From: an uncultured Chloroflexia bacterium
GTDB lineage: Bacteria; Chloroflexota; Limnocylindria; Limnocylindrales; CSP1-4
Assembly: GCA_963720715.1 (NCBI GenBank)
Contig: CAVRGM010000003.1
Coordinates: 45,427 to 109,426 of the forward strand
Direction: 5' to 3'
Length of the DNA stretch: 64,000 nt
A program made the translations under genes and the position numbers. The notes under the pieces are model-generated. The model saw nothing but the letters and a program-made list of their open reading frames with translations, did not search any database and had not been told where the DNA came from. Shown here piece after piece: positions 19,934 to 41,645 of this stretch. Every line of letters begins with the position of its first letter. The stretch's first letter is position 1.

Positions 19934-19948
19934 AGGTCTGGCGCCTCG

Positions 19949-20484: not shown

Positions 20485-20520
20485 CACGAGCCGCGGCGGG
20501 TTGGGGCCGCGTCCGATGGT

Positions 20521-24345: not shown

Positions 24346-24368
24346 GAGCGGCGGATCGGAAGGGACCC

Positions 24369-25508
24369 CTGCTCGAGTCGATCGACCTCCTCGATTTCCG
24401 TGGGTACGGGTCGCTCCATGTCGAGTTCGGAGCCGGTCCGCAGCTCATCTGGGGTCCGAACGCGACCGGCAAGACCAGCCTCCTCGAGGCGATGGTCCTG
24501 CTCGCCTGGGGTCACTCGCACCGAACCAGCGCGGACGGTGAACTGATCCGCTGGGGGACAGACCTGGCGAGGATCGAAGGCCTGACCGGCCGCGATACGA
24601 TCGAGGTCGCAGTCGTTCGATCGGGCGCCGGCGGAACGGCTGGTCGCAAGCGGATCCGGGTCAACGGCGTGGGCCGGCGGGTGGCTGGACTGGCCGGACT
24701 CCTCCGCATCGTCGTGTTCGCTCCCGAGGAGATGCTCCTCGTGGTCGGCTCCCCGACGCTCCGGCGAACGGTCATGGATCGCCTCGCGGCCGCCGGCTCA
24801 CCGGCCTATCTCGACAGCCTGACGACCTATGGCCGGGTCCTTCAGCAACGGAACAGCCTGTTGCGGGCGATCCGCGAGGAAGGTGCGCCAAGGGACGAGT
24901 TGCGGTTCTGGGACGGAGCCTTCCTCGACGCCGGCGCCGCGATCGTCGGCGAACGGCGGCGGCTCCTGGAGGCTCTGGCGGGACCCCTTGCGGCGGCGCA
25001 CGCCGAGATCGCCCCGGATGAGGCGTCGGTGAGTGCCCTCACGGTGCGCTACCAGACCAACGCTCCGCCACTCTCCGGGGAGTCGCCGCGGGACGCGCTC
25101 GCCCGCCGCCTGGCCGACACGGCCGACAAGGAAGTCTGGAATGGCTCGACCCTGGTCGGCCCACACCGCGACGACCTCGTCTTCGAACTGGCCGGTCGGG
25201 ACCTGACGACGTTCGCGTCGCGCGGCCAGCAGCGGACCGCCATCCTGGCCCTCAAGCTGGCGGAACTCGACCTCGTGACCGGGATCGACGGGCGCCCACC
25301 CTTGCTCTTGCTCGACGATGTCTTCTCCGAGCTCGACCCGGACCGTCGAGCCCACCTCGTCCGGCGCATCGCGGCCCTGCCCCAGGCGTTCGTGACCACG
25401 ACCACGCTCGATGACCTTGATCCGAGCCTTCGGGCGAATGCGACCAGCTGGGAAGTCAGGAGCGGGGCGGCGGGGGCCGGGCTGATCTCGTCGGACGGGA
25501 AACCGTGA
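24369..25508 (+). CDS. recF: DNA replication and repair protein RecF (start codon unresolved)
   Basis: RecF Walker A 'GPNATGKTSLLEA' lies upstream of the first ATG (24492) in the same frame, and the frame is open back to the dnaN stop. C-terminal signature 'LLLLDDVFSELD'. No ATG/GTG/TTG precedes the P-loop in frame, so a CTG at 24369 or another rare start is inferred. Confidence 0.8.
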   Translation: MLESIDLLDFRGYGSLHVEFGAGPQLIWGPNATGKTSLLEAMVLLAWGHSHRTSADGELIRWGTDLARIEGLTGRDTIEVAVVRSGAGGTAGRKRIRVNGVGRRVAGLAGLLRIVVFAPEEMLLVVGSPTLRRTVMDRLAAAGSPAYLDSLTTYGRVLQQRNSLLRAIREEGAPRDELRFWDGAFLDAGAAIVGERRRLLEALAGPLAAAHAEIAPDEASVSALTVRYQTNAPPLSGESPRDALARRLADTADKEVWNGSTLVGPHRDDLVFELAGRDLTTFASRGQQRTAILALKLAELDLVTGIDGRPPLLLLDDVFSELDPDRRAHLVRRIAALPQAFVTTTTLDDLDPSLRANATSWEVRSGAAGAGLISSDGKP

Positions 25509-25837
25509 GCCCGGCCAGGCGCCGACCGATGGTCAGGATCGGTGACCTCATCCCCGATGCGGCCCGATCCCTCGGGTTGGAGGACGAACTCCGGTCCTCG
25601 CGGGCGATGGCCACGTTCGAGGCGCTGGTCGCCGAGCGCGTCCCGGCCGCGACAGGCGCCTGCCGGGTGGTCCGCCTTGAAGGGTTCATCCTCGACGTCG
25701 AGGCTGATGCGCCGATCGTCGCGCAGGAACTGCGGCTTCGATCGACCGAGCTGCTGGCCGCCTTCGCGACCGCGCCAGGTGGCGTCGGCGTGCGCGAGAT
25801 GCGGGTCCACGTGCGGCCCGGAGGCGCCCGCGTATAA
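25505..25837 (+). CDS. DUF721 domain protein (DciA-like, recF-associated)
   Basis: 110 aa with a GTG start overlapping the recF stop. It sits in the recF-gyrB neighbourhood position typical of DUF721 proteins. The assignment rests on position, size and basic character. Confidence 0.55.
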   Translation: MSPARRRPMVRIGDLIPDAARSLGLEDELRSSRAMATFEALVAERVPAATGACRVVRLEGFILDVEADAPIVAQELRLRSTELLAAFATAPGGVGVREMRVHVRPGGARV

Positions 25838-25949: not shown

Positions 25950-28229
25950 ATGGCCGTACGGCTCAACATGACCCTCGGCGTCGTCGCCGAGCACGACCGA
26001 CTCGCCGACTCGCCGGACACGCTGACCGTGGTCGAGCCGAGTGTCGGCTCGGTCGCGCGCTCCAAGGGCAACCTGTACCTGCTGGTCACCTCGCGCCTCT
26101 CATCCCGCCACGCCCTGGAGGCCACCCGGCTGGCGGCCGAGACGATCCGGAACGAGTACTACTACGACGAGTCGGCGGGGATCCGGGTCTGCCTCCAGAA
26201 GTCGATCGCGACCGCCAACAAGCGACTCGCTCATCAGGCCGACCGGTTGGGTCTCAAGTCGGCCGATGGCAACGGCCCGATCGGGATCGGGGTCGCCGTC
26301 GTCCGCGGCACGGAGATGTACGTCGCCACGGTCGGTCCCGCTGAGGCCTACCTGATCCGTCAGGCTCGGCTATCGACCTTGCCCGATCCGAACCGGGACA
26401 GTGGCTTGCCGGCGGGGGCGCTCGAACCCGAAGTCTGGCGTGGCGAGATCGCGGTCGGCGATTCGCTCGTGCTGGTATCGCCCAACGTCATCGCCAAGCT
26501 GGGGGCCGATGAGCTGAAGGACGCCATGTTGACGCTCCATCCGCAATCGGCCATGGAGCACCTCCATCAGCGCTTCGTGAGCGCCGATGGGTCGGGCAGC
26601 GATGGCGCGATCGCCTTCGAGGCGACCGAGGTGTCTTCGACAAGCCGCGCCCGGACGCTCGTCCCGGTCCGTCCGGCCGAGCCGCTGGCCGGTGCCCCGG
26701 ATCGCTCGCCGATCCCCCTGGCCGACAATGTCCAGGCTGCCGGGGTCGCGGTCAGTGCCGCGGCCGGCAACGCGCGCGACGCCGCGGGCAACGCCGTCGA
26801 GCGGACCGTCGCCCGCGTTCAGGGCCTGATGCCGCGTCGCAAGCAGGCGTATCGACGAGTCACGCCGCTCGCCTCTCGACGCGAGACCCAGCGGCGGGCG
26901 GCTCTGGCCGTCCTCGTCCTGGCCATCGTGGTCGGCGGCCTCGGGCTGGCGGTCTATGCCTTGAGCGGCAACACCCCGCAGCAGGCGATCAGCTCGGTCA
27001 ACACCGGCCAGGCTGCGCTGGATCTCGCCCGGACCGACCTGGCCAAGGTCAGCGGTCCCGGGATCGACCTGATCACCGACGATCGCGCCCAGGCGCTGGA
27101 CCTGCTGACCGAGGCCTATGCCCAGCTCGACGTCGCGGCAAAGGCCAACGTCAGCGAATCGGTCATCGCCCCGCTGCGTGCCCAGACCGTGGCCGGCCTG
27201 GACCGCCTGTACGGCGTGGTGCCGGTAGCGTCGACGGACCTGTACACCTTCAAGCCGGAAGCAGACGCCGACCCCATCGACCTGTCGGCGATGGTCCGGG
27301 GACCCGACGGGATGCCCTACGTCATCGATCGCTCGACCAAGACCGTCTATCGCATCAACCTGAAGACCGGTGAGGCGACGACGGTCATCCGGCAAGGCAC
27401 CAAGGGCCCGGGCGGGACCGTCGCCAACCCGCGATTCCTTGCGGTGGGTGGACAGGATCTGTTGATCATGGATGCCAGGAACGTCCTGTGGCGCTGGCGC
27501 CCGGCGAACGATTCCGGCAAGGGCACCCTGACCCGGGTCACCGTCAACGGCTCGGCCTCTCTGGGCGACGACATCATGGGCATCAACACGTTCCTGCGTC
27601 CCGGTACGCGGGGGCTGTACAACTTGTACATCGTCGACCCATCCGAGCAGCAGATCCGGGCCTTCTCGCCGGCCGCTGACGGCGGCGGCTTCCCGGCCAA
27701 GGCCACCGACTGGTTGGCCACTGCGCGCGATGTGTCGAAGATGACCGCGACGTACGTCGACGGCGACCTCTATGCGACCGACGATGGCCAACTGGTGCGC
27801 TTCTACGGGGGCAAGAGCGAAGGCTGGAACCCGAAAGCCCCCGACGATCAATCGCTGCGGCCTGCTCCGGTCTACTCGCTCCTGGCGTCGGCCAGCGAAA
27901 CGAGGTCAGGCGTCATCTACGCCTTCGATGGACCGAATGACCGGGTCATCGCCCTGGCCAAGTCGGACGGCAGCTACCAGGCTCAATATCGACTGGCCGG
28001 CGGAGCCCAGGACTGGTCGGATCTGCGGGCGATGTACGTGGTTGCCGGCGAGGCGGACAAGCCGAATACGCTCGTCTGGATGTCGGGTGACGGCGTCCAC
28101 CAGGCGATCCTCGTCGCGGTCCCGGACGACGTCCCGGCCGCGACGCCCAGTCCGACCCCCACGCCCACGGCGGAGCCGACCAAGAAACCGCCCAAGAAGA
28201 AGAGTCCCAAGCCGACCAAGAAGCCCTGA
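25950..28229 (+). CDS. membrane-anchored protein with degenerate PP2C-like N-terminal domain, extracytoplasmic beta-rich domain and Pro/Lys-rich tail
   Basis: 759 aa. The N-terminal ~250 aa follow the PP2C fold pattern ('GNLYLLVTSRL…EMYVATVGPAEAYLIRQARL…GDSLVLVSPNV') but lack the canonical metal-binding Asp residues. A single TM 'AALAVLVLAIVVGGLGLAVYAL' sits at ~aa 300. The C-terminus 'PTPTPTAEPTKKPPKKKSPKPTKKP'. Confidence 0.55.
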   Translation: MAVRLNMTLGVVAEHDRLADSPDTLTVVEPSVGSVARSKGNLYLLVTSRLSSRHALEATRLAAETIRNEYYYDESAGIRVCLQKSIATANKRLAHQADRLGLKSADGNGPIGIGVAVVRGTEMYVATVGPAEAYLIRQARLSTLPDPNRDSGLPAGALEPEVWRGEIAVGDSLVLVSPNVIAKLGADELKDAMLTLHPQSAMEHLHQRFVSADGSGSDGAIAFEATEVSSTSRARTLVPVRPAEPLAGAPDRSPIPLADNVQAAGVAVSAAAGNARDAAGNAVERTVARVQGLMPRRKQAYRRVTPLASRRETQRRAALAVLVLAIVVGGLGLAVYALSGNTPQQAISSVNTGQAALDLARTDLAKVSGPGIDLITDDRAQALDLLTEAYAQLDVAAKANVSESVIAPLRAQTVAGLDRLYGVVPVASTDLYTFKPEADADPIDLSAMVRGPDGMPYVIDRSTKTVYRINLKTGEATTVIRQGTKGPGGTVANPRFLAVGGQDLLIMDARNVLWRWRPANDSGKGTLTRVTVNGSASLGDDIMGINTFLRPGTRGLYNLYIVDPSEQQIRAFSPAADGGGFPAKATDWLATARDVSKMTATYVDGDLYATDDGQLVRFYGGKSEGWNPKAPDDQSLRPAPVYSLLASASETRSGVIYAFDGPNDRVIALAKSDGSYQAQYRLAGGAQDWSDLRAMYVVAGEADKPNTLVWMSGDGVHQAILVAVPDDVPAATPSPTPTPTAEPTKKPPKKKSPKPTKKP

Positions 28230-28250: not shown

Positions 28251-28814
28251 ATGGACGACGGACTGGTCGAGATGGTCGTCGAGAGCGTCCGGGTCCACAT
28301 GCTCTCCAGCCGCCACGTGGTCATCCTCAAGGAGGCGGCCGCCGAACGCGAGCGCTACCTGCCCATCTGGATCGGCCCGTGGGAAGCGAGCGCCATCGCC
28401 ATGCGACTGCAGGGCCTGGCCCCGGAACGTCCGCTGACGCACGACCTGTTCGCGGCCACGCTCGAGGCGGTCGGTGCCCGGATCGAACGGGTCGTCATCA
28501 GCGACTTGGCCGACGAGACGTTCCACGCCCGCATCCTGCTCGATCGGGATGGCCGGTCGTCAGAGGTGGATGCCCGGCCGTCGGACGCGCTCGCCCTGGC
28601 GGTCAGGACAGGGTCGCCGATCTACTGCTCGGAGGCCGTCCTGGAACAGGCGGCACTCGGCCGGGACGGCGGCCTCGGCGATGACACCGATGACGAGGGC
28701 TCGACCCTTGAGACGACCGGCGAGCGGTTGGTCGATCCGCGCCTGGATGTCTTCCGTGACTTCGTCAACTCGCTGGAGGCAGACGCCGAGGGGGGCGAAG
28801 GGCGCTCGAGCTAG
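28251..28814 (+). CDS. bifunctional nuclease (BFN/DUF151 domain) protein
   Basis: 'LPIWIGPWEASAIAMRLQG…RPLTHDL…ETFHARILLDRDG…DARPSDALALAVRTGSPIY' matches the DNase-RNase BFN domain pattern. Confidence 0.7.
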   Translation: MDDGLVEMVVESVRVHMLSSRHVVILKEAAAERERYLPIWIGPWEASAIAMRLQGLAPERPLTHDLFAATLEAVGARIERVVISDLADETFHARILLDRDGRSSEVDARPSDALALAVRTGSPIYCSEAVLEQAALGRDGGLGDDTDDEGSTLETTGERLVDPRLDVFRDFVNSLEADAEGGEGRSS

Positions 28815-30337
28815 ATCGACGTCCGGCGACCGATGACCCGGCTGAGTTTCGAGGCATCGACGCCATCGATGTACTCGAGGTCGTAGCGCGCGGCCAGGGC
28901 GGTCACCTCGCGCGGATCGGTCCGGATGACGTAGACCGGCCGACGCCCGAGGTTGGCATCGATGACGTCATAGATCGAGCCGAGATCCTCGTCCAGCCGG
29001 GTCCGGTCGTCGACGATCTCGATGTCGGGACGCTCGCCCAGGACCCGTTGTCGATACCAGAGGGGTGTGGAGTAACTCCACCAGCTCACGATCACGGCGT
29101 CTGGTCCCATGATGGTCAACGCGTGGTCCACCCACTGCTCCGCCGAACGGTTCTGGCTGGCATCCACGGTGGGGTACCGCTTCGGGATCGCGCCGATCGT
29201 CGGCCACACCAGGGCGAGGGCCACGATGATCGGGACGACCCGGCGGATCGGCGCTGATCTCGGTGACGGTCTGCCGACAAGGCCGACCAGGGCGTCCACG
29301 ACCGTGCCAGCCAGGATCGCCAGCCAGGTCCAGGTCATGAGGACCGGACCGAGGTAGTAGCGCAGGATGTTGGCGTTGTCGTACGACGCCGCGAAGAAGC
29401 AGGTGATCGCGACAGTGAGTCCGGTCAGGAGCGCATAGCGTGGCTGACGGATCGCGGTCACCACGAAGGCGATCGGGATGGCCGCGGCCAGGATCCCGTA
29501 CTGGTCGATCGCGCGTTGGACCAGCGTCCCGAATTTGCCCGGCAAGTCGCCCAACGGATCGATCACACTGCCCGTGAATTGCTGGCCCAGGACGACGTAC
29601 AGAAAACCGCTCAGGGTCTCGGGCCGGCCGTACACGAGGGGGGCACGGAACGGTCCCGCCCGGAGCGGCAATTCGAGGTAGACGATCGCCAGAGTGACCG
29701 CCAGCGCGAGGACGCACATCGCCACCAGGCGTCGATCACGCCAGATCGTCTGGTCCACCGCCAGGACATACAAGCCGACCGGCAGGGCGAGAAGCAGGGT
29801 CAGCGAATGGTTGCCGACGGCCAGACCGAAGACGACCGCGGCAGCGATCAGGTAGCGGTCGTCACGGCCATCACGCTCAGGGTCGTCCCAGGCGACGAGC
29901 AGCCAGAGCAGGATGGCCACGAAGGCGAGATGGAGTGAATGGGCCTCGGCCCGCGTGGCGATGGCCCAGGCGATCGGGGTCAGCGCCAGCCCGATCCCGG
30001 CCGCCAATCCGATGGCCAGCCAGCCGGACAGGCGGCGCGCCAGGTCCACGGTCACGCCGGCTGCGACGGCGAGGCAGACCGCCGAGAACAGGTTCATCCG
30101 AAACGCCGGCTCGCCGAATCCCTGGAGCAGGATGGATGCGACCCAGCCGAGCAGGACATAGGTCGGGAACCCTGTCGGGTGGGCGGTCCCCAAGAGTGGT
30201 CCCACGGCCTGGAGCTCAGCCGTGTCCCAATAGCCAAGACCGGGCAGGAGAGCCAGCCAGCCCGCGATGAAGGCGACACCAGCGGCGAGAAAGACGGCGG
30301 CCAGCCTGACCCGGCGCGACGTGACGGCATCGTTCAT
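28811..30337 (-). CDS. DUF2723-type integral membrane protein (GT-C-like glycosyltransferase, TMEM260-like)
   Basis: 508 aa and polytopic. 'GYWDTAELQAVGPLLGTAHPTGFPTYVLLGW' resembles the conserved first-loop motif of DUF2723/PMT-like GT-C enzymes. It is divergent from the giant GT-C gene. Confidence 0.55.
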   Translation of the reverse strand: MNDAVTSRRVRLAAVFLAAGVAFIAGWLALLPGLGYWDTAELQAVGPLLGTAHPTGFPTYVLLGWVASILLQGFGEPAFRMNLFSAVCLAVAAGVTVDLARRLSGWLAIGLAAGIGLALTPIAWAIATRAEAHSLHLAFVAILLWLLVAWDDPERDGRDDRYLIAAAVVFGLAVGNHSLTLLLALPVGLYVLAVDQTIWRDRRLVAMCVLALAVTLAIVYLELPLRAGPFRAPLVYGRPETLSGFLYVVLGQQFTGSVIDPLGDLPGKFGTLVQRAIDQYGILAAAIPIAFVVTAIRQPRYALLTGLTVAITCFFAASYDNANILRYYLGPVLMTWTWLAILAGTVVDALVGLVGRPSPRSAPIRRVVPIIVALALVWPTIGAIPKRYPTVDASQNRSAEQWVDHALTIMGPDAVIVSWWSYSTPLWYRQRVLGERPDIEIVDDRTRLDEDLGSIYDVIDANLGRRPVYVIRTDPREVTALAARYDLEYIDGVDASKLSRVIGRRTSI

Positions 30338-30347
30338 CGGCGCAAGG

Positions 30348-33300
30348 ATGCCCTATCTGCGCCCTGTGCTACGCTCCCAGCCACCTTCCACGCTCGTGCA
30401 GGAGCCGTTCCCGGTGACTGGCCCCGAGACACACGGGATCGAGCGAGAGACACGAGCGCCGTCATTGGTGACCGGGACGCGGGGAGCCGTCGGCGCGATC
30501 CTCGTCGTCCTCGCGCTCGGCCTGGTCTTCCGTCTGATCCTCGCATATCGACTTCCAGGCTCCGGGTTCGAGGTCGACCTGGGCGCATTCCGGTACTGGG
30601 CGTCGAACCTCGCCTCCGAAGGGCCGTTCGGCTTCTACGACCGCGACTTCTTCCACGACTACACGCCTGGCTACCTGTACGTCCTGTGGCTCGTCGGCGT
30701 CGTCGGCAACGTCGTCGGTGGTGTTGGCGACCTGATCAAGATCCCGCCGATCCTGGCCGACCTGGCCATCGGCTGGCTCGTCTGGTCGATGGTCCGCGAG
30801 CTCGGCGGGCGGGACCGGCTGGCGCTGGCGGCGGGGCTCGTGGCCGTCCTGAACCCGATCACCTGGTTCGACAGCGTCGTCTGGGGCCAGGCCGATTCAG
30901 TCGGTGTCGTGTTCCTGTTGCTCGGGTTGCGCGAGCTGTGGCGCGACCGGCCCGAACGGGCGGCGATCTTCACGGTCGTCGCGGCGATCATCAAGCCGCA
31001 ACTCGGGATCCTCATCCCGATCGTCGCCGTGGTCACCATCCGGCGCGCACTCTGGCCAGCCGGCGGGCACGGCGACCCGACCCGGACCGGGCGACCGCTC
31101 AGGATCCTGACGACCGGTCTGGCCGGCTACCTGACCGCCGTGGTCATGTGCCTGCCGTTCGGCCTGACCGTCATCGGGTTGAGCGGCCAGCCGCCGTATC
31201 TGACGTCCGGGCTGCTGGAACAGGTCGCGGTCGCAGCCGGCGGCTATCCGTACCTGACGGTGAACGCCTACAACCCCTGGGCGCTGATGCCGTCCGATCT
31301 CGGCCAGAGTCTGGCCAACGCCGGGCAATGGGTCTGTGACTATGCCGGGACGGCCGCGGACTGTGGGGCCGGGTCGGCCACGTTCGGACCGATCCCTGCC
31401 GTAGTCGTCGGTACGACCCTGCTCCTGGCGGCGATCGCGCTGATCCTGGTGGTCGTCGCCCGGCGTCCCGACCGGCTGACCCTGCTCGTCGGCCTGGCCG
31501 TCCTGGCCCTGGCATTCTTCGTCCTTCCGACCCGGGTCCACGAGCGGTACGGCTTCCCGTTCTTCGCCATGGCCGTGATCCTGGCGGCGATCTCGTGGCG
31601 CTGGCGGATCGCCTACCTCGTCCTGTCCGTGGCGACGTTCGCCAACATGTACGTCGTCCTGACCACGCTCTATCCCGACAACCCGTCGATCGCGGATTGG
31701 CTGGGCCTCGGGCCGGCCATCCGCTCCGAGGCGGGAGTCATCGCCGTCTCCGTGCTGCATACGGCGGCCTTCGCCTGGGCGTTCCTGCAGCTCAGGTCGG
31801 GGACGCGCGCCCGGCTCGCCAACGAACTCGCGGCAGCGTCGGTGAAGGATCCGCCCGAGGCGGCAGCGGATCCCGGAGAACCCGTCGCGCCTCCCGTTCC
31901 CGCGCTGGGGACCGGCATTCGAACCCGTTCCGCAGGGGCCGCGGTCCGACCACCCGTGGTCGGACCGGCCGTGGCCGCGACCATGCCGACCTGGAAGGCT
32001 CGGCCCAGCTTCGAGGAGACCGGCATCGTCGGCTGGTTCCGGGCTCGCCTGGCTGACCCTCCCGTCCGGCCCGACCGGAGTGCCGTCCTTCGGTCGGAGG
32101 GCGGGGGGCGGCTGGACCGACTCGATCTGTGGTTGGTCATCGCCCTCGTCGTCGGCTCGATGTTGCTGCGCACGTATCGACTCGAACAGCCGTACCAGAT
32201 GCACTTCGACGAGGTGTACCACGCTCGGACCGCGGCCGAATTCCTCCAGGATTGGCGCTACGGCCTGTCCCACGACATCTACGAATGGACGCACCCACAC
32301 CTGGCCAAGTACGCGATGGCCGGCGGGCTCGTCCTGTGGGGCGGCGATCACGTCGGCGCGACGAGCGACCTCGGTGTGCCGGTCCGTGGCGTCGCGGTCG
32401 AGCCTCGGCGGCTCGACCAGTCGGCTCCCGGATCGCGGGCCGGTGAACGCCTCCACGTTGCCACTGGGTCCGAGGTCCGAACCTACGACCTGAACAGCCG
32501 AGCGCTGCTCTCAGTCGTCCCCTCTCCGGGCGCCACGAGCGTGGCCATCGATGACGCCCGAAACCAGCTGGTCGTCGGGGGTGAAGACGGCAGCCTGTCC
32601 ACTCTCGACCTCGCCTACCTCGACGCCGACGGGCAAGAGGCCGGGGTGGAGCCGCTTGCACTCGCGACCGTCGATCACCCGGTCGACCATCTGCTGGTCA
32701 GCCAGGACGGCGCAACGGTCATCGCGGCCTCCGGCGAGCGGCTGTCGGTGGTGGACCTTGACAGCGGCCAGGTGAAGGGCTCGATGGACCTGCCGGCCAT
32801 CGCCGATCTGGCGCCTGGGGGCAGTGGATCGTCGGTCGTGGCCGACATCGATGAAGTGACCGACCCGGCGGCTGTCGCCTCCGCCCTGGCGGCCATCCTC
32901 GATGCGGACGGGTCGTCCGGGTCCGAGGCCGACCTGGCCGCCGATTTCGAGGACCGCCTGGCATCTGGCGCGGCCGGCGGTTCGGTCACGCTCGGTGACC
33001 CGGGCAGCGGCGATACCCGAACGGCGCTCGACGACGCCATCGCCAGCGGGTCACTGCCGGGTGTCCGGGTCGACCAGGTCGACCGGATCGCGGTGGCGAC
33101 CGGCGACGGGGTCGCCTTCATCGATCCGGACCGGGTCTCGCTGATCACGACCGTCGTGCTCGAGGGTGGTGCCCACGGCCTCGCCATGGCGACCGGTCTG
33201 GATGACCCGAAGCTGTACGCGACAGCCGGTGACGCCAGCGCACCCGCCTACGAAGTGATCACCGTCGGCGGTGACTCGGCCAAGGGAGGACCGGTCGCCA

Positions 33301-35774
33301 GCGGGGACCACCCGCTCCCCGGGCTCGGGTCATCGGTCGCGTACGACCCGGCCAGCCAGATGATCCACATCCTCGGGCAGGCGCCGGCGCCGGATCAGGC
33401 CGACTGGACCGTCTACGTCGTCGAACCGCACGGCAACTCGGTCTTTGCCGACGCCCGCCTGCCCGAAGGGACGACACCGAGCGCCTGGGCGGCCGACTTC
33501 AACGCTGACTACCCGTCAGAGGATCGCCAGCAGTTGCTGGTGTTCGACGCGGACGGCCAGACCGCCGCCATCGACACCGGCTCGCACGCCTTTGCCTGGC
33601 GCCTGCCTGGCGTCATCGCCGGAGCTTTGACGGCCGGATTGCTCTTCCTGCTGACCCGGATCCTGTTCCGTCGACGCCTTGTGGCGGGCCTGGTGGGGCT
33701 CTTCGTCATCGCCGACGGGATGTTCTTCGTCCAGTCGCGGATCGGCATGAACGACGTCTATGTCGGGCTGTTCATCGTCGCCGCGTACACCCTGTTCGCG
33801 ACCATCTGGACCGGGTGGTGGCGTAGCCGAGGGGCGTTCTGGATCGCCATGCCGATCGTCGGGATCCTGCTTGGTCTGGCTCTCGCCAGCAAGTGGGTCG
33901 CCGCATATGCGATCGGGGCGCTGGTCCTGCTGATCCTCATCCGGAGCGCGCTGGGGCGCGTCCTGGCCATCCTCGGGTTGATCGGGATCACCACCGTCCT
34001 CGGCTACATGGCCATCTCCGTCGCGGCGGTCGAAGGCGGCCCGGACCCGGGTTTCGGCAACTTGACCTTCCTGCTGATCATGGTCGCCCTGACGCTGCTG
34101 GCGGTCGTGGTCGCGGTGCTGCATCCGATCGCCTGGACCGATGAAGAGATGCGCTTCGCGGTCGTCGCTCCATCGGTCCTCGGCGGGTTCGTGTTCTTCG
34201 GCGCACTGGCCCTGGGCAAGGTCGATCATCAGATCGCGCTCGGACCACTGGCCGTCACTCCGCTCCTCACGGCCATCGCCCTGGCCCTGGGTTCGCTCGT
34301 TGTGGTCGTCCTGTTCACGATCGGCGGGCGGCTGGGCTTCGGACCGCTGGCGGGGCCACCGGCGATGGACGATCCGATCCGACTGCTGGACCCGCCCGGG
34401 ACGCCGCCGGACGGCTGGCTGCGCCCGGGCTGGCTGGCCGGGATCCCGGTCGTCTGGGTCATCGTGAGCCTGACCGTCGTCCCGTTGGCGGTCTACGTCA
34501 TCAGCTACATCCCGTGGGCGATGATCGAGAACCACCAGATCATCGCGGGATGGCCCCCGGGTCACACCGGCCAGACGTTGCTTGACCTCACCGGTCAGAT
34601 GTACGGCTACCACAACGGCCTGACGTCCGCGCACCCCGCGTCCTCGCCGTGGTGGGCCTGGCCGATGAACCTCAAGCCCGTCTGGTTCTATCAGGAGGGT
34701 CTGGCCGCCGGTACGTCGGCGGCCCTGTACGACGCGGGCAGCCTGGTCATCTGGTGGATGAGCATCCCGGCAATGGCCTTCGTGTCATACATGGCGTACA
34801 AGCGACGCAGCCTGGCCCTGACCCTGATCGCCATCGGCTTCGCGGCCCAATGGATCCCCTGGGCGCGGATCGACCGGGCGGCATTCCAGTACCACTACTA
34901 CACGGCGCTGCCGTTCCTGGTCATGTCGCTGGCCTATTTCGCCGCCGAACTGTGGCACGGGGCATCGCGCCACACCTGGCTACTTGCCCGAGCCGCGGCC
35001 GCGATCGCGATCATGGGGCCAGCGATCCTGTGGCTGCTCGATCGGCCGCTGTGCGCGTTCGTCGGCGTCGACTCGGTCAACCCCGGATCCGCCGCCTGCC
35101 CCGCGGTCATCCCCGACTTCGTCCTGACCGCCCGAACGGCCGGGCTGGCGCTCGTTGCCGGCATCGGACTGGTTCTCATCGTGTGGCGCTTCCTCGCGTT
35201 CGAGTCTGACGAGGAGGTCGACGGCGAGGGTGGCCGGCTGACGTCAGCGCTCCGGTCCCTGGTCCTGACCGGGATCGTGGTCATCGTCGGGTTGATCGTC
35301 GTGGCGTTCCTGCCGGACACCCAGATCCTGGTCCTGACCAACGTCCCGGTCGAACCGATCGCGCTGGTCGTCGCGATCCCCCTCGGCTTCCTGGCGCTCC
35401 AGGTCTTCGCCTCACGCGACGCCCGCCGATTCGTGGTCGGTCTCGGGGTGGCGGTCGTGGCCTGGTTCGTCATCCTGTACCCGAACATCAGTGCGCTACC
35501 GCTCCCGTCGGCCGTCGTCGCCGCGTACCAGGGGATCCTGCCGACCTACCTGTATGCGTTCCAGTTCCCGGTCAGCACCGTCACTCGCGCCACCGACACG
35601 CCGATCCTGACCCCGATGCTCGCGATCCTCGGGATCGCCCTGACCGTGACCTGCCTGGTCGTCGCCTATTCGGCCTGGGTCTGGCGGCTGACGCTGGCCG
35701 ACGCGAAGGCGGCGTCCACTGAGTCAGCGACCGCGGACGGCCCCGAACCGATCGTGCGGACCGGGGGGACCTGA
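30348..35774 (+). CDS. giant (~1800 aa) membrane glycosyltransferase fusion: N-terminal GT-C domain (DUF2029/GT87-like) + beta-propeller-like repeats + PMT/GT39-like polyprenyl-phosphate-dependent glycosyltransferase
   Basis: The N-terminal polytopic domain has 'FRYWASNLASEGPFGFYDRDFFHDYTPGYLY'. The middle (~aa 700-1100) has repeated 'V(V)DLxSGxV…DG' strands. The C-terminal half carries the PMT signatures 'QMHFDEVYHARTAAEFL' and 'YEWTHPHLAKY', with a PMT-like TM core 'IADGMFFVQSRIGMNDVYVGLFIVAAY'. The start is set at the ATG at 30348 (a GTG at 30414 is an alternative). The ORF track's start at 30267 would overlap the divergent gene. Confidence 0.7.
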   Translation: MPYLRPVLRSQPPSTLVQEPFPVTGPETHGIERETRAPSLVTGTRGAVGAILVVLALGLVFRLILAYRLPGSGFEVDLGAFRYWASNLASEGPFGFYDRDFFHDYTPGYLYVLWLVGVVGNVVGGVGDLIKIPPILADLAIGWLVWSMVRELGGRDRLALAAGLVAVLNPITWFDSVVWGQADSVGVVFLLLGLRELWRDRPERAAIFTVVAAIIKPQLGILIPIVAVVTIRRALWPAGGHGDPTRTGRPLRILTTGLAGYLTAVVMCLPFGLTVIGLSGQPPYLTSGLLEQVAVAAGGYPYLTVNAYNPWALMPSDLGQSLANAGQWVCDYAGTAADCGAGSATFGPIPAVVVGTTLLLAAIALILVVVARRPDRLTLLVGLAVLALAFFVLPTRVHERYGFPFFAMAVILAAISWRWRIAYLVLSVATFANMYVVLTTLYPDNPSIADWLGLGPAIRSEAGVIAVSVLHTAAFAWAFLQLRSGTRARLANELAAASVKDPPEAAADPGEPVAPPVPALGTGIRTRSAGAAVRPPVVGPAVAATMPTWKARPSFEETGIVGWFRARLADPPVRPDRSAVLRSEGGGRLDRLDLWLVIALVVGSMLLRTYRLEQPYQMHFDEVYHARTAAEFLQDWRYGLSHDIYEWTHPHLAKYAMAGGLVLWGGDHVGATSDLGVPVRGVAVEPRRLDQSAPGSRAGERLHVATGSEVRTYDLNSRALLSVVPSPGATSVAIDDARNQLVVGGEDGSLSTLDLAYLDADGQEAGVEPLALATVDHPVDHLLVSQDGATVIAASGERLSVVDLDSGQVKGSMDLPAIADLAPGGSGSSVVADIDEVTDPAAVASALAAILDADGSSGSEADLAADFEDRLASGAAGGSVTLGDPGSGDTRTALDDAIASGSLPGVRVDQVDRIAVATGDGVAFIDPDRVSLITTVVLEGGAHGLAMATGLDDPKLYATAGDASAPAYEVITVGGDSAKGGPVASGDHPLPGLGSSVAYDPASQMIHILGQAPAPDQADWTVYVVEPHGNSVFADARLPEGTTPSAWAADFNADYPSEDRQQLLVFDADGQTAAIDTGSHAFAWRLPGVIAGALTAGLLFLLTRILFRRRLVAGLVGLFVIADGMFFVQSRIGMNDVYVGLFIVAAYTLFATIWTGWWRSRGAFWIAMPIVGILLGLALASKWVAAYAIGALVLLILIRSALGRVLAILGLIGITTVLGYMAISVAAVEGGPDPGFGNLTFLLIMVALTLLAVVVAVLHPIAWTDEEMRFAVVAPSVLGGFVFFGALALGKVDHQIALGPLAVTPLLTAIALALGSLVVVVLFTIGGRLGFGPLAGPPAMDDPIRLLDPPGTPPDGWLRPGWLAGIPVVWVIVSLTVVPLAVYVISYIPWAMIENHQIIAGWPPGHTGQTLLDLTGQMYGYHNGLTSAHPASSPWWAWPMNLKPVWFYQEGLAAGTSAALYDAGSLVIWWMSIPAMAFVSYMAYKRRSLALTLIAIGFAAQWIPWARIDRAAFQYHYYTALPFLVMSLAYFAAELWHGASRHTWLLARAAAAIAIMGPAILWLLDRPLCAFVGVDSVNPGSAACPAVIPDFVLTARTAGLALVAGIGLVLIVWRFLAFESDEEVDGEGGRLTSALRSLVLTGIVVIVGLIVVAFLPDTQILVLTNVPVEPIALVVAIPLGFLALQVFASRDARRFVVGLGVAVVAWFVILYPNISALPLPSAVVAAYQGILPTYLYAFQFPVSTVTRATDTPILTPMLAILGIALTVTCLVVAYSAWVWRLTLADAKAASTESATADGPEPIVRTGGT

Positions 35775-36925
35775 GGGACGGCCGAGCGGAAGTCGGGCGG
35801 CAACGCCCCGTTGGCCTCCAGGCGCCGGATCACGAACCCGTAGTAGTCCTCGACCTTGGCCGTGACACTCGGCCAGCTGAACGCCTCGGCGCGCGCCCGA
35901 CCGGCGCTGCCCATCTCGCGACGCAGGTCTGGGTCATCGAGCAGCCGAGCGATCGCGGCGGCCAGTTCATCCGGATCTCGTGGCGGGACGAGCAGGCCCT
36001 CGCGCCCGCGCCGGACGACGCCCTTGTAGCCGTGGATGTCCGAGGCCACGATCGGCGCCCCGGCGGCCATCGCCTCCAGCAGGACGATGCCGAATGACTC
36101 GCGTCCGGTCGCCGGAGCCACGTAGATGTCGGCGGTCCGGAACAGCTGGGCCTTCTCGGCATCGCTGACGCGCCCGAGGAACTCGACGGCCTGGAGACCG
36201 CGTGTCGCGACGTACCGTCGTGCTTCGCGCTCCTGCGGTCCGGACCCGACGACGAGCAGGCGCTCGTCGTAGCCCGACTTGCGCAGGATCCGATGTGCCT
36301 TGAGCAGGTCGAGGAGGCCCTTGCGTGGCTCATGCCGGCCGACGAAGAGGACGTTGGGCGTGCCGTCCTGCCAGCGCGCGATGGGGACGGCACCTTCGAA
36401 CCGAGGGATATCGACGCCGTTGGGGATGACCTTGTAGTCGCCGGGGAAGAACCGGTCGATGAAGTGGCGGGCGGCGGCGCTGACCGCGATCCGACCGTGG
36501 AGCTTCGCGGCATGGTCCTTCATCACCCGACTGCCGATCTCGTACGACGGCGAGAACCCCGCGTAGGCGTGGAAGGTCGCGATGTTGACACTGCGAGATT
36601 CACGCAGGAGGAAGAGCGACAGGAACGGCACGAATGGCTCGTGGAGGTGGAGGATGTCGAATCGCTCGCGGGCGAGCAGATCGCGGACCTGGCCGACATA
36701 GCGCGGCGAGAACGTCAGCGTCCCGATGGAGCCGTTGAGCGGCATGCTGAAGCCGACACCGATCCGCAGGATGTCGCCCTCCGACGAGCGCTGCGGTCCG
36801 TGGCTGGCGGTGATGATCCGGACGTCGTGCCCGCTCAGCCGAAGGTTCTCGTAGAGGTGACGGACGTGCTGGGCCACACCACCGGCTTCAGGGTAGATGT
36901 ACGGGCAGACCAGGCCGATCTTCAT
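35666..36925 (-). CDS. pimA: GT4 glycosyltransferase, PimA-like phosphatidylinositol mannosyltransferase
   Basis: 419 aa. The N-terminus 'MKIGLVCPYIYPEAGGVAQHV' and the C-terminal 'ESFGIVLLEAMAAGAPIVASDIHGY' EX7E region are typical of GT4/PimA. Its 3' end overlaps the convergent giant GT gene by ~108 nt. Confidence 0.8.
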   Translation of the reverse strand: MKIGLVCPYIYPEAGGVAQHVRHLYENLRLSGHDVRIITASHGPQRSSEGDILRIGVGFSMPLNGSIGTLTFSPRYVGQVRDLLARERFDILHLHEPFVPFLSLFLLRESRSVNIATFHAYAGFSPSYEIGSRVMKDHAAKLHGRIAVSAAARHFIDRFFPGDYKVIPNGVDIPRFEGAVPIARWQDGTPNVLFVGRHEPRKGLLDLLKAHRILRKSGYDERLLVVGSGPQEREARRYVATRGLQAVEFLGRVSDAEKAQLFRTADIYVAPATGRESFGIVLLEAMAAGAPIVASDIHGYKGVVRRGREGLLVPPRDPDELAAAIARLLDDPDLRREMGSAGRARAEAFSWPSVTAKVEDYYGFVIRRLEANGALPPDFRSAVPQVPPVRTIGSGPSAVADSVDAAFASASVSRQTQAE

Positions 36926-37752
36926 CGTGGGCCGCCGTCACCGAGTTTGCCGAGATCCGCGCCCTCGAACCGCGGGGGCCGTTGCCGACCGCCAGGGTAG
37001 CCGTGGTCGCGACCGGTGCCATCACGTCGGATCCGGCCGGCGACCTCGTCCCGTGCGTCGCGTCCACGCTTGCGCAACTGTTCGCCGAACGTGCCGAGCT
37101 GTCCGGCCGTGGCATGGAACGACCCCCCGTGTTCCGTCGTCCGGGCATCGATCGCCCGCCGCAGGTCGGCGGCATCCCGGCCAGGGAACGTCGTCCAGCC
37201 TGTTCCGATGGCGTCGACCGCGTGGGCGTCGCTGTTCCCGAGGTGGGCCAGACCGTGGTCGTCGGCGAAGCGGACGACCCTGCTGTGGAGCGGCCGACCC
37301 AGGCTCGTCGGATTGAACGTCTCGAGACCGTCGGGCCTGGCCCCCGGGTCGGCGTCGTCGAGGAGACGGCGCAGGGTCCAGGCCTGGGCACACAGCGGGT
37401 AGGGCACCAGGGGATGGGCCGGGATGGCCAATCCGCCGGCCTCGTGGACGGCGAGGATCGTCGTCCGCATCGACCGATAGGGTCGGATCGGGCCGTCGAT
37501 GAACAGGGCAAGCAGGTGACCGCCGAGCGTGGTGACCTCTTCGCCGACGACGACCTCGAAGGGCAGGGCTCGATCGATGGCCATCGTGCGGGCGGCCAGC
37601 GCGGCGTCGATCCGCTCGTGGTCCGTGATGGCGATGACATCCAGGTCACCCCGGTCGGCCACCGCAGCGAGGATCGTCTCGACCCCGGCGGTGCCGTCGC
37701 TGGCCAGGCTGTGGATATGCAGGTCGGCTCGCCCTGGCTCAGATGCCGTCAT
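36922..37752 (-). CDS. PHP-domain metal-dependent phosphoesterase
   Basis: 'ADLHIHSLASDG', 'AITDHE', and 'HLGNSDAHAV' form the PHP His/Asp metal-binding pattern. The start is at 'MTASEPGRADLHIHS'. Its stop overlaps the pimA-like start, indicating an operon. Confidence 0.7.
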   Translation of the reverse strand: MTASEPGRADLHIHSLASDGTAGVETILAAVADRGDLDVIAITDHERIDAALAARTMAIDRALPFEVVVGEEVTTLGGHLLALFIDGPIRPYRSMRTTILAVHEAGGLAIPAHPLVPYPLCAQAWTLRRLLDDADPGARPDGLETFNPTSLGRPLHSRVVRFADDHGLAHLGNSDAHAVDAIGTGWTTFPGRDAADLRRAIDARTTEHGGSFHATAGQLGTFGEQLRKRGRDARDEVAGRIRRDGTGRDHGYPGGRQRPPRFEGADLGKLGDGGPR

Positions 37753-38705
37753 GCGAGTGCCCCGGCCCCATCGTCGGGCGCGCCCACGGTCGCGTGCTCG
37801 AGATCCGGCCAGATCGGGAAGAAGATCGCCCACCACTGGTCGGGCGCATCGGCGATGAGTTCTTCGAACGCAGCGGACAGGCGGGTCATCGTGGCGGTCA
37901 CCCGCTCGCGACGAGTCCCATCGGTCGGGATGTCGATCGGGATCAGTCGGCCGCGATAGTGGCCCGCGGCGGTCCGCCGCACGGTCATGCCGTACACGGG
38001 CACGCCAGACTCGACGGCCAGCATGGCCGGGCCCATCGGCAGCCTGGCGGGTGCTCCGAACAACGGGATCGTCGCGCCGCCGCCGGTCAGGTCGCGATCG
38101 CCCACGAGACCGACCGGGATCCCGTCGCGAAGCGCGTCCATCAGCGCCCGCCGAGCTTCTCGAAGACCGACCAGACGGATCCCGTGGACACCCCGGGTCC
38201 GCTCGAAATAGGCCTGCAGGCCAGGGTCCTCGATGGTCTCCATCGGGGTGACCGTCGTCCCGACACGGAGCGCGAGATAGATCACGGCCAGCTCGAGCGA
38301 ACCGAAGTGCAGGCCGACGAACAGGACGGCCTTGCCTGGCACGACGGCTTCGGCGATCAACTCCGGGGTGTCAAGGCTCAGACGCTGGTCGACGTATTCG
38401 CGGGTCACCGCCGGCGTCCGGGCGACCTCCAGGTAGTAGCGAGCGGAATGCCGGAACGACGACCGGACGAGACGCTCCAGCGCGTTCGGGTCGGTCGCGG
38501 CTGCCTGGACCCGCGCGCTCCCCCGGCCCGACGCGGCGAGGGACCCGCAGACCCGCCGAAGGTTGCGTCGCGCCTGGTCGGCCCGTCCAGGGGCAAGCCG
38601 ATACCACAGGTCGCCGACGACCTCTGCGACGCGGAATGCCGGGCCCTCAGGAAGCCGGCAGGCAACCCACGACATGGCCAGGAGTAGGCGGCCACGGACC
38701 GTCAT
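37749..38705 (-). CDS. lysophospholipid/lipid A-type acyltransferase (LPLAT, PatA-like)
   Basis: The start is at '[20 protein letters not shown]'. The HtrB/PatA family shows in 'AVLFVGLHFGSLELA' (HX4D-type motif region) and 'VGLVGDRDLTGGG'. The ORF track's N-terminal extension to 39578 overlaps the next gene and is rejected. Confidence 0.7.
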   Translation of the reverse strand: MTVRGRLLLAMSWVACRLPEGPAFRVAEVVGDLWYRLAPGRADQARRNLRRVCGSLAASGRGSARVQAAATDPNALERLVRSSFRHSARYYLEVARTPAVTREYVDQRLSLDTPELIAEAVVPGKAVLFVGLHFGSLELAVIYLALRVGTTVTPMETIEDPGLQAYFERTRGVHGIRLVGLREARRALMDALRDGIPVGLVGDRDLTGGGATIPLFGAPARLPMGPAMLAVESGVPVYGMTVRRTAAGHYRGRLIPIDIPTDGTRRERVTATMTRLSAAFEELIADAPDQWWAIFFPIWPDLEHATVGAPDDGAGALA

Positions 38706-39754
38706 GTGGCGGAAACGGGTTCGGGCTCGGTCGCGGCCTGATCCGCGTCCCCGGTGGCCGGTCCGGGATCCGGGTCGCCGGCCTGCATGGCTCGCGCTCG
38801 TCGCTCCAGATCGGCCGCCTCGGCTGCGGTCGCCGGCCAGGTCGGCTTGAAGCTGTACCACTGTTCCGGGGCGGGACGGATCGACTCGGCAAGGACGTCG
38901 GCGATGGCCTGGGTCGCCCGTTGGAGCTCGGCTGGATCCGTCGAGGCGACGACGATCGGCTCGCCCAGGCTGAGATGCAGCCGCCGATCCGGGAGGCGCC
39001 TGGCCCGGACCGGCAGGATCCGTGACGATGTCTTGGCGGCCAGCGTGGCCGGACCAGCCGGCAGCGTCGTCCAGCCATCGAACAGCTTCACCGGGATCCC
39101 GTCGCTCCGATACCCCCAGTCCACGAGCAGGCCCAGGAGCTCGCGGCGCCGAAGCACCCCGAAGATCGCGCGCAGGTTGCGCCACGGGATGAGCGTCGTG
39201 CTCCAGGCCTCCCGCTGGCGCTGCAGGTGCTCGAACAATTCGGGAAAGGCCGAGTCGTCGGCGACGACGCTGAGCGGCAGGCCGAGGTGGGCGATCGCCG
39301 CACCGATGACGTCGTTGTTGCCGACGTGGCCGACCGTGATGATGAGACCGCCGTCGGGGGCAGCATCGCGGATCCGCTGGATCTCGGCCGGGTCGAGACC
39401 CTCGACGAGGTCGATGACCTCGGCCTGGGGCAGGTACGGGACCCGCATCAGCTCGACCAGATATCGACCGTATTCCCGGTACGCGCGGAGAGCCATCCGC
39501 CGGACGCGCGGGTCGTCGGGCGGCAGCCCCAGGACGTGCCCGAAGTTCTGGTTGGACCAGGTCCGCCTGGTCGGCCACAGGAGGTACGAGCCCTGGGCCG
39601 AAAGCCCGAGGATCGCCCCGGTCGGACCGGGCGGCAGCGTCCGTAGCAGCCAGGACACCGCGCGGTAGCCGATGACGGCCGAGCGCTCGACGATCCTGGG
39701 GCTGGACCCGCCGCGCCGGTGGGGCGCCTCGAGCCGTTTTTCGGCGTCGGTCAC
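38702..39754 (-). CDS. second LPLAT-family acyltransferase (PatA-like paralogue)
   Basis: 350 aa with '[21 protein letters not shown]' and '[13 protein letters not shown]', paralogous to the downstream acyltransferase. It ends with a Pro/Ala/Asp-rich tail. Confidence 0.7.
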
Positions 39755-40989
39755 TTCGCGGCGGTGGCCACCTTGGCCTTGGTCCCGGCCATCCGCTTGA
39801 CGGTCTTCTTGACCGGCGCTTCCGTGCCGACCAGGGTCTCGTTGTCGTCGCCGCGGATGAACGCCTCGACGCGGTTGAACGCGATGTCGTCGTGGATCTG
39901 GTGGGGCGGGCTCTTCATGAAGTAGCTGGACGGGGCCACGAGCGTGCCGGTCAGGCCGCGATCGAGTCCCAGCTTCAGACAGCGGATGGCATCGGTGATG
40001 ACGCCGGCGCTGTTGGGGCTGTCCCAGACTTCAAGTTTGAGCTCGGCGTTGAGCGGCACGTCGCCATAGGTCGTGCCCTCCATCCGGATGTAGCACCACT
40101 TGCGGTCGAGCAGCCACGGCACGTGATCGCTCGGCCCGACGTGGACATCGTCGGGATCCATCTCGTAGTCGAGCATCGACGTGACGGCGTTGGTCTTGCT
40201 GATCTTCTTGGACTCGAGCCGCTCCCGCTCCAGCATGTTGAGGAAGTCGGTATTGCCGCCGAAGTTGAGCTGGTAGGTCCGGTCGAGGCGGACGCCGCGA
40301 TCCATGAACAGGCGGGTCAGCACGCGATGGCTGATGGTCGCGCCGACCTGACTCTTGATGTCGTCTCCGATGACCGGCAGGCCGGCGGCCGCGAAACGGC
40401 GCTGCCAGTACGGCTCACGGCCGATGAACACGGGGATCGCGTTGACGAAGGCCACGCCCGCCTCGAGCGCCTGCTCGACGTACCACTTGGTCGCCTGTTC
40501 ACTGCCGACCGGCAGGTAGCTGACCATGACGTCGACTTCGCGTTCCTTGAGGATGCCGACGATGTCGGCGGTCGGGCCGGGGGCCTTCTCGATGACCTGG
40601 GACAGGTACTTGCCGAGGCCGTCGTGGGTCATCCCCCGCTCGACCGGCACGCCCATGGGCTGGACCTGCTGGAAGACATAGGTGTTGTTCGGCTTCGTGT
40701 AGATGGCTTCCGACAGATCCTTGCCGACCTTGTTCTTGTCGATGTCAAAGGCCGCCACGAACTCGATGTCCTTGACGTGGTATCCGCCAAGGTCGACGTG
40801 CATCAGCCCCGGCACAAAGTCGTCCTTCTTGGCGTTCTCGTAGTAGTAGCGACCCTGGACCAGGCTGCTGGCGCAGTTACCGACGCCGACGATGGCCACC
40901 CGGATCTTGCCGTCGCCGCGGCGACCGGCGCCCGCCCAGGTATTGGTCGGCTTGGAGCCGTTCTTGCCGTTCTTGCCGTTGGTTGCCAC
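39751..40989 (-). CDS. ino1: myo-inositol-1-phosphate synthase
   Basis: 412 aa with '[18 protein letters not shown]' NAD-binding, '[30 protein letters not shown]' and '[11 protein letters not shown]'. It is full-length Ino1 of the archaeal/actinobacterial type. Confidence 0.9.
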
Positions 40990-41006: not shown

Positions 41007-41645
41007 TTACTTGGTCGAGGTCTGGATGGCCGACTTGGCCTGGCTGCGGACATGGAGGATCCGCTGGATGACGGTGATGACGGCGCCGAGCGTGATGATC
41101 ACGAGGGCGATGGACAGGATGTCGAGGTTGCTCGTCGCCCCGGCGACGATGAGGCCGAGGCTGAGGATCACCAGCCGGATCTCGCGCGGCATGACCCCGA
41201 CGGCGGCCATCCCGGTACCGGCGGTGAAACCGAGCCCTTCTGACTTGGCCCGGGTGTAGCTGACCATGAACGCGGCACCGAGCGCCGCCGTGGCCAGGAT
41301 CGCGACCGGGTCAGATCCGGCCAGGACCCCGCCCCAGGCGATGCCGAGGTACACGATCGCCTCGCCCCAGCGATCGAACACGCTGTCCATGAAGGCGCCG
41401 AGGGTGCTGACCTTGCCGGTCGCCCGGGCGAGCGTGCCATCGAACATGTCGAAGACGCCGCCGATGAACACGACGATGCCCCCGACCAGCCAAAGCTGGG
41501 CGGCCAGCATGGCGGCCCCGATCGTGGTGATGCCGAAGCCGATGAGGGTCAGACCGTCAGGGGTCAGGCCCAGCCGGCCCATCCCGAGGGCGATCGGCTC
41601 GAAGACCTTCTTGATCCGGCCGCGGGACTCATTCGAGATCGTCAT
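41007..41645 (-). CDS. pgsA1: CDP-alcohol phosphatidyltransferase (phosphatidylinositol-phosphate synthase PgsA1-like)
   Basis: 212 aa with '[30 protein letters not shown]' = the D-x2-DG-x2-AR…G-x3-D-x3-D signature. It lies adjacent to ino1 and the acyltransferases, as in PI/PIM loci. Confidence 0.85.

Follow-up and report, generated by a model that had tools for sequence, protein, structure and literature searches.

What would a bacterium do with a single polypeptide of 1,786 residues that joins two GT-C-type glycosyltransferase modules to a β-propeller? The gene in question lies in a 64-kb window (64,000 nucleotides of contig CAVRGM010000003.1, numbered here from the first letter of that stretch) from an uncultured bacterium of the Chloroflexota, class Ca. 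Limnocylindria. The G+C content of the window, 64–72%, fits the 68.9% reported for that class (PMC10608941). We put at about 0.5 the probability that the product of this giant gene is a single-chain, polyprenyl-phosphate-sugar-dependent machine for protein glycosylation, of the protein O-mannosyltransferase (PMT, GT39) type. This reading is favoured because the three types of part found in the mycobacterial Pmt complex occur here in one chain, with the propeller tethered to the loop that carries the DE motif of the PMT module.

The open reading frame (ORF) at 30267..35774 on the + strand is uninterrupted and comprises 1,835 codons from the first ATG at 30267; residues are numbered along this frame. 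The G+C content at third codon positions (GC3) is 0.82–0.92 in every 100-codon block, linker included, and this uniformity indicates a coding signal that is unbroken through all parts. The true start is likely to be the GTG at 30414, since a database twin (P0001), 100% identical to the giant protein, is 1,786 aa long, the homolog consensus N-terminus MTGPASGG pairs with VTGPETHG of the giant protein, and an AGGAG lies about 10 nt 5' of this GTG. The gene and its parts, in which TM denotes a transmembrane helix, are as follows:

30414..35774, + strand: giant fusion gene, 1,786 aa with the likely GTG start
30474..31838, + strand: N-terminal GT-C module, residues ~70–524, of the ALG6/ALG3/PIG-M/PimE type
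31839..32099, + strand: Pro/Ala/Arg-rich linker, residues 525–611
32100..32351, + strand: PMT module part 1, residues 612–695, with TM1, the loop-1 helices, the DE motif and THPHLAK (675–681)
32352..33578, + strand: seven-bladed β-propeller, residues 696–1104, predicted to be extracytoplasmic and nested in PMT loop 1
32865..33044, + strand: small α/β subdomain, residues ~867–926, looped out of the propeller
33579..35036, + strand: PMT module part 2, residues 1105–1590, TM2 onward, including the PMT_4TMC region
35037..35774, + strand: C-terminal extension, residues 1591–1835, adding about five TM helices and holding a pair of invariant cysteines (C1596, C1611)

The first-pass annotation had assigned a PMT module to this protein from two motifs, and the module is indeed present: Pfam PMT (PF02366) matches residues 1107–1225 with 38.5 bits (gathering cut-off 22.7), PMT_4TMC (PF16192) matches residues 1438–1582 with 47.2 bits (cut-off 32.4), and the quoted HFDEVYHARTA and EWTHPHLAKY lie at residues 646–656 and 673–682. 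The PMT match is interrupted by the propeller, with profile positions 3–64 falling on residues ~627–695 (E 0.0018 on the isolated part-1 segment) and positions 81–198 on residues 1107–1225. Conservation was read from an alignment of 152 sequences at 40–100% identity. The DE motif in loop 1, D648–E649, is present in 152/152 aligned homologs and most of the rest of the loop is likewise invariant, while part 2 has 80 positions conserved at ≥98%. The only sequence match in the PDB is yeast Pmt4 (9e61), over residues 1443–1505. A structure model of residues 612–1811 (mean predicted local distance difference test score, pLDDT, 79.3; predicted TM-score, pTM, 0.76) has TM1, then the DE-motif helix, then a 13-residue helix (HPHLAKY...) that is too short for a membrane span; in part 1 these are helices H7–29, H36–54 and H68–80. 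The giant protein has no match to the MIR domain, and the loop-1 propeller is its sole large soluble domain. Bacterial PMTs are described as being without MIR domains (PMC12331936).

In the same model, 28 strands make up seven four-stranded blades, placed after a short loop-1 helix and before TM2. The sequence RILFRRRL directly follows TM2 and an Arg-rich stretch precedes TM1, which by the positive-inside rule places the propeller outside the cell membrane. A β-propeller predicted to be extracytoplasmic had been suggested from repeated β-strand units, and its existence is borne out; the domain order proposed with it, a propeller between two GT-C domains with the PMT motifs after it, is not, because the motifs precede the β region and the propeller lies within PMT loop 1. 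Conservation is lowest in the propeller, at 37–71% identity across loci as against 53–86% for the flanking modules. The small subdomain looped out of it (H256–270, H276–289, E295–299, H304–315) is the least conserved piece of this insert, with no residue conserved at ≥98%. A family-profile comparison gave the subdomain a weak match (E 1.4e-4) to the N-terminal, non-catalytic region of a penicillin-binding protein, 4ovd_A.

The N-terminal module is identified by fold. By sequence it has no significant family match in the PDB, Pfam or NCBIfam, and its identity to the GT-C enzymes PimE, ALG6, ALG3 and PIG-M is 12–14%. Fold comparison scored ALG6 highest (27.6), followed by ALG3 (26.6), GPI mannosyltransferase I (24.9), PIG-U (21.6), PimE (20.3), ArnT (17.9) and Pmt4 (16.4), so that ALG6, ALG3 and PIG-M are closer to the module than PimE is. 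As modelled, the module is a full GT-C domain and belongs to the group whose enzymes use polyprenyl-phosphate sugars to modify lipid-linked acceptors. The earlier description of a polytopic GT-C N-terminus is therefore upheld, with placement in the ALG6/PIG-M/PimE structural group. The label 'GT87/DUF2029-like' survives in part: some homologs are annotated GT87/DUF2029, but the module's own score against the GT87 model (PF09594) is 10.1 bits (E 0.65), far under the cut-off of 25. The Alg6_Alg8 model is also below threshold on the module, and precomputed family matches among the homologs are a mixture of GT87, Alg6_Alg8 and PIG-U. A GT-C_B label for the module was considered and dropped, as the PimE structure paper puts ALG6, PimE, ArnT and PglB in GT-C_A (PMC12041525).

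Several residues of this module are invariant, namely D104, D131–Y132, K243-P-Q and T422-R-V-H-E-R-Y428. D104, directly behind TM1 and at the beginning of the first loop helix, occurs in 148/148 sequences having a residue there, and K243-P-Q and T-R-V-H-E-R-Y occur in 152/152. In PimE the first juxtamembrane helix carries the catalytic Asp at its tip, and phosphate is bound by Lys and His residues (PMC12041525). By analogy, D104, K-P-Q and H-E-R-Y would occupy places corresponding to the catalytic and phosphate-binding residues of GT-C enzymes. The linker that joins this module to the PMT module is poorly conserved (mean identity to the query 0.23) and has a pLDDT of 45–67 over most of its length; it is Arg/Lys-rich, and this basic character suggests a cytoplasmic placement.

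How widely the fusion occurs was assessed with one genome per species. A relative of the giant gene was found in 457 species-level genomes, at least 80 of which have a one-piece full-length match; locus details come from the 80 best loci, and in 80/80 of these a single match runs from residue 1 to ~1,780 at 50–74% identity. Source names on the homologs are 'Candidatus Limnocylindrales', 'Limnocylindria' and 'Chloroflexota'. Among 1.84 billion cluster representatives searched, 608 matched below 1e-30; the best 150 of these are mostly fragments, with full-length forms among them down to 37–47% identity. In relatives of at least 1,200 aa that retain the N-terminal module, module order is constant down to 36–40% identity. 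Fusion is the standard state of this gene family, conserved across hundreds of Limnocylindria genomes, and the relatives included no convincing unfused lineage. The triple-domain architecture had been called unusual, which holds for the literature, where it is rare, but not for nature, where it is common.

The alternative that two genes have been joined by a sequencing or assembly error, or that a long ORF has arisen by chance in GC-rich DNA, is effectively refuted. Long spurious ORFs are common in a window of 68% GC, and some relatives are called as ~700-aa pieces (P0121 and the locus L001) or as 1,424-aa forms without the N-terminal module. However, in L001 the TMEM260-like neighbour is also broken into pieces, a typical sign of indel errors, and the 1,424-aa form has full-length relatives at 80% identity; on these grounds the split homologs were rejected as a sign of two genes, and the split and N-terminally short forms are artefacts of assembly or gene calling. 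Furthermore, the 80 best loci come from independent assemblies, each with one continuous full-length match, and GC3 is uniform. With frame and coding signal unbroken, the giant gene is one gene, not two, and the check for a frameshift that the first-pass annotation had set shows no such artefact.

Two variant forms were seen among the relatives. P0328 (1,560 aa, a cluster of 7) has the N-terminal and PMT modules with a loop-1 insert of ~350 aa that lacks BLAST similarity to the propeller, and P0322 (2,390 aa) has ~900 additional residues between the N-terminal module and PMT TM1. From these variants, the soluble parts of the family seem to be exchangeable.

The closest parallel comes from mycobacteria. 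The Pmt of M. smegmatis pulls down a GT87-like protein, a periplasmic eight-bladed β-propeller protein and a DivIVA-like protein; the mycobacterial components are Pmt/Rv1002c (GT39), Rv0051 (GT87-like), Rv3212 (propeller) and Rv1209 (DivIVA-like), the GT87-like partner Rv0051/ML2687c is described as a Pmt2-like scaffold without catalytic residues, and an AlphaFold3 model places the propeller over the Pmt DE motif like the MIR domain of yeast Pmt1–Pmt2 (bioRxiv 10.64898/2026.07.15.738315). At the level of architecture, the giant protein likewise has a GT39 module with a DE motif, a GT-C module of the GT87/ALG6 group and an extracytoplasmic propeller. Unlike the mycobacterial complex it is a single polypeptide whose PMT loop 1 houses the propeller, its second GT-C module keeps invariant catalytic-type residues, which ML2687c is described as lacking, and no DivIVA-like part was identified in it. 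Chains combining a PMT-type with a GT87-type GT-C module are also mentioned, in the same preprint, for some Paenibacillus (phylum Bacillota) GT39 enzymes translationally fused to a GT87 enzyme (UniProt V9WAU2; bioRxiv 10.64898/2026.07.15.738315). The eukaryotic Pmt1–Pmt2 and POMT1–POMT2 pairs resemble the giant protein in having paired GT-C units, a loop-1 DE motif and a soluble outside domain over the active site. However, they consist of two paralogous PMTs rather than a PMT and an ALG6/PimE-like module, and their soluble domain is a β-trefoil MIR in a later loop (EL4; PMC12331936) instead of a propeller in loop 1. PimE, ALG6, ALG3 and PIG-M stand alone and act on lipid-linked glycans, whereas the corresponding module here is fused.

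On the favoured reading, the two GT-C modules would be embedded in the cytoplasmic membrane, their loop-1 active sites exposed on the outer face. Of these modules, the PMT one would transfer a sugar, most likely mannose from polyprenyl-phosphate-mannose, to Ser/Thr of exported proteins. The propeller, anchored at both ends beside the DE motif, would cover the active site and choose or retain the acceptor, a role like that of MIR in eukaryotic PMTs and like that proposed for Rv3212/ML0810c in mycobacteria. Within the same chain, the N-terminal module would take the place of the GT87-like Rv0051/ML2687c and may attach more sugars after the first, as PimE does on mycobacterial mannoproteins; elongation of O-mannose chains is described for PimE and other GT87 enzymes (PMC12757957).

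Since one of the alternatives draws on the neighbouring genes, these are given here:

28811..30337, − strand: TMEM260-like (DUF2723) GT-C gene, 508 aa, divergent neighbour with a non-TPR C-terminal domain
30338..30413, no strand: divergent intergenic region of 76 bp between the ATG at 30337 and the GTG at 30414, its extent reasoned from the start codons, presumably holding both promoters
35666..36925, − strand: PimA homolog (GT4), convergent with the giant gene and overlapping it by 109 bp
36922..37836, − strand: PHP-family metallophosphoesterase, from Pfam PHP_C and PHP, NCBIfam CehA/McbA and synteny
~37749–38705 and 38702–39754, − strand: two tandem PatA-like genes, Pfam Lip_A_acyltrans
39751..40989, − strand: myo-inositol-1-phosphate synthase (Ino1), Pfam Inos-1-P_synth, E 6.5e-35
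41007..41645, − strand: CDP-alcohol phosphatidyltransferase of the phosphatidylinositol-phosphate synthase (PIPS) type, PDB PIPS 5d92, E 1.6e-24

The gene set downstream is of the type that initiates phosphatidylinositol (PI) mannoside (PIM) synthesis. By sequence comparison the GT4 neighbour is a PimA homolog, its similarity to PimA exceeding that to other GT4 enzymes: M. smegmatis PimA (2gej/4n9w) matches it over residues 1–364, its full length, with E 4.9e-65 (~5e-65), and the next-best PDB match is PimB' at 3e-24. The PatA-like genes match PatA in the PDB (5f2t, E 3.5e-16) and reach 131 bits against a cut-off of 209 for NCBIfam PRK07920, and the PIP-synthase-type gene also matches M. tuberculosis PgsA1 (6h53, E 1.8e-18). 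The convergent, overlapping pimA and the PI/PIM-type genes around it (PimA, two PatA-like, Ino1 and PIP synthase) are thus real, as had been claimed. Like the actinobacterial pgsA1–patA–pimA operon, the window has a PIP synthase, PatA (in two copies) and PimA, plus Ino1, on one strand; unlike that operon, the set has an interposed PHP phosphatase and a Chloroflexota host. Between 35666 and 41645 on the − strand the window thereby holds a complete actinobacterial-type PI/PIM initiation set in a Chloroflexota class. A literature search on PIMs in Chloroflexota and on Limnocylindria glycosyltransferases found nothing relevant. We presume that ino1 (Rv0046c) and Rv0051 lie close together near the origin in M. 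tuberculosis, which, if so, would parallel the arrangement in the window.

The 109-bp overlap (35666–35774) recurs in L001; in each of the two proteins it falls in a low-complexity C-terminal tail past the conserved domains. The true start of the PHP gene is probably internal, relatives having ~273 aa (as judged from the gene size in the locus L002), and in every relative whose flank is long enough the gene is interposed between those of the pimA-like and patA-like types. The PHP protein is a candidate phosphatase for the conversion of phosphatidylinositol phosphate to PI, a step to which no enzyme is known to be assigned in actinobacteria.

On the upstream side, the divergent neighbour had been named a DUF2723/TMEM260-like protein, and it scores well above the gathering threshold for PF11028 (90.4 bits, cut-off 24.2, E 1.5e-25), with 40.6 bits for PMT_2. 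It is 71% identical to L002 7003–8520. No TPR domain of the human TMEM260 type was found in it with Pfam at E ≤ 0.1, and its C-terminal ~200 aa match no Pfam model. By tblastn, 66 of 82 related loci have the TMEM260-like gene, on the strand opposite to the giant gene and upstream of it, and 76/82 have the PimA homolog. In L002 a ~485-aa polytopic membrane protein (8514–9971, − strand), absent from the window, separates the TMEM260-like and giant genes. The same protein occurs in many of the loci L003–L082, where the TMEM260-like match begins ~1.6 kb upstream of the giant gene; neither Pfam nor NCBIfam gives a match for this membrane protein, and it has no similarity to the TMEM260-like protein.

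Two genes upstream of the giant gene, and also syntenic, is a gene for a single-pass protein of 759 aa (25950–28229, + strand), with a nuclease-domain gene between it and the TMEM260-like gene. No Pfam family was found for this protein; its N-terminus is weakly PP2C-like (NCBIfam E 2e-3), its TM segment is at about residues 318–340, and a repeat-like, β-rich ectodomain is followed by a Pro/Thr/Lys-rich tail, PAATPSPTPTPTAEPTKKPPKKKSPKPTKKP. Because this tail resembles sequences modified by actinobacterial Pmt, the protein is a candidate PMT substrate. It was also considered as a relative of the propeller, and rejected, having no similarity to that of the giant gene. Further upstream the window spans the chromosomal origin region (18743–25837), with yidC (18743–19933, − strand), dnaN and recF, an ORF at 21510–22913 that occupies the dnaA position and is called dnaA from synteny with L001/L002, and an ORF of 110 aa at the position of DciA.

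Several points weigh against a single-chain protein glycosylation machine. The function of the family is predicted from sequence and model, and the position of the propeller over the DE motif and a Pmt1–Pmt2-like packing of the GT-C modules are drawn from connectivity. The likeness of the accessory parts to Rv0051 and Rv3212 is one of module type by description, and the propeller here has seven blades and is YncE-like, whereas the mycobacterial one is described as eight-bladed. The NCBIfam equivalog for actinobacterial Pmt, NF058602, scores 43.2 bits against a cut-off of 800; on these scores the giant protein is a PMT family member in the Pfam sense, not an ortholog of the characterised bacterial Pmt. 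No polyprenyl-phosphate-mannose synthase was found with Pfam in the 33 of 42 called ORFs of the 64-kb window that were scanned. Finally, the neighbours would make a PI-mannoside-type glycolipid, which would also suit a lipid-directed role of the PimE/PIG-M kind for the N-terminal module.

This last point leads to a reading that we consider unlikely, though not negligible, in which a flipped, acylated PI-mannoside is extended into a lipomannan-like glycolipid by the N-terminal and possibly the PMT-like module, while the propeller binds glycan or wall. The PimA, PatA-like, Ino1, PIP synthase and PHP genes that immediately follow downstream in practically all relatives whose flank is long enough speak for it, as do the invariant catalytic-type residues of the N-terminal module and the fact that its best structural matches act on lipid-linked acceptors, those of the PIG-M type and PimE on PI-anchored glycolipids. 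However, the order from dnaN to the PIP synthase gene (~25 kb) is the same by tblastn in the 82 related loci wherever the contig is long enough. It is equally conserved for dnaN, recF, DciA and the nuclease-domain gene, so that adjacency, unspecific in small genomes, is weak evidence for a shared pathway. The '13-kb lipoglycan island' of the first-pass annotation had been drawn from adjacency alone, which says little where replication genes are just as syntenic. Moreover, the PI/PIM genes run towards the giant gene from the opposite strand and are not co-transcribed with it, and the C-terminal module fits the protein-directed PMT and PMT_4TMC models rather than the lipomannan or arabinan GT-C families. 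Deletion of Rv0051 in M. tuberculosis left cell-wall glycolipids unchanged (unpublished data cited in PMC3229680), and human TMEM260, of the same family as the divergent neighbour, is a protein O-mannosyltransferase (PMC10214176); both points further favour the protein-directed reading. Of the two outcomes first offered for the locus, a lipomannan-like glycan or protein O-mannosylation, the latter is thus preferred in view of the mycobacterial Pmt complex, while the lipoglycan link depends on gene order.

Even if the giant protein is a PMT-type machine, its N-terminal module could be a non-catalytic scaffold like Pmt2/ML2687c, serving as dimer partner and acceptor-binding surface. We regard this as rather improbable. 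The mycobacterial ML2687c/Rv0051 is described without catalytic residues (bioRxiv 10.64898/2026.07.15.738315), the module is under the GT87 and Alg6_Alg8 Pfam thresholds, and its invariant residues could serve folding or lipid binding. However, invariance of D104 (148/148), K243-P-Q and T-R-V-H-E-R-Y (152/152) at 40–100% identity exceeds what a scaffold needs, and by analogy these residues would stand at the catalytic-Asp and phosphate-binding places of GT-C enzymes, after TM1 and in the region of the weak Alg6_Alg8 match. Because of the invariant Asp, K-P-Q and H-E-R-Y motifs, the module is probably still an elongating enzyme.

A further-reaching proposal, possible but doubtful, is that the giant protein is a self-contained, bifunctional O-glycosylation holoenzyme in which the PMT module starts the glycan, a catalytic N-terminal module extends it and the propeller acts as gate, and that, as its fusion in a deep Chloroflexota lineage would show, the partnership of GT39, GT87-like protein and propeller is ancient and general in monoderm/Terrabacteria, not only in Actinobacteria. 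A bolder version would have the giant protein link PI-mannoside glycolipid and protein glycosylation at one site.

PMT-type O-mannosylation machinery is known already; what is new here is its class-wide one-chain form. As gene fusions are a classic sign of proteins working together, the class-wide fusion of a PMT, a second GT-C module and a propeller lends independent support to the recently proposed Pmt complex of mycobacteria, which matters for the virulence of M. tuberculosis. The giant protein offers a natural fused model of that complex, a single-chain target of fixed stoichiometry for structural and biochemical work, and the invariant N-terminal residues allow a direct test of enzyme versus scaffold for GT87-like PMT partners. 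For the organisms themselves, PMT-type glycosylation, and apparently PI-mannoside synthesis too, is extended to an abundant uncultured soil and freshwater class of Chloroflexota; if the PI/PIM genes are active, Limnocylindria would produce acylated PI-mannosides.

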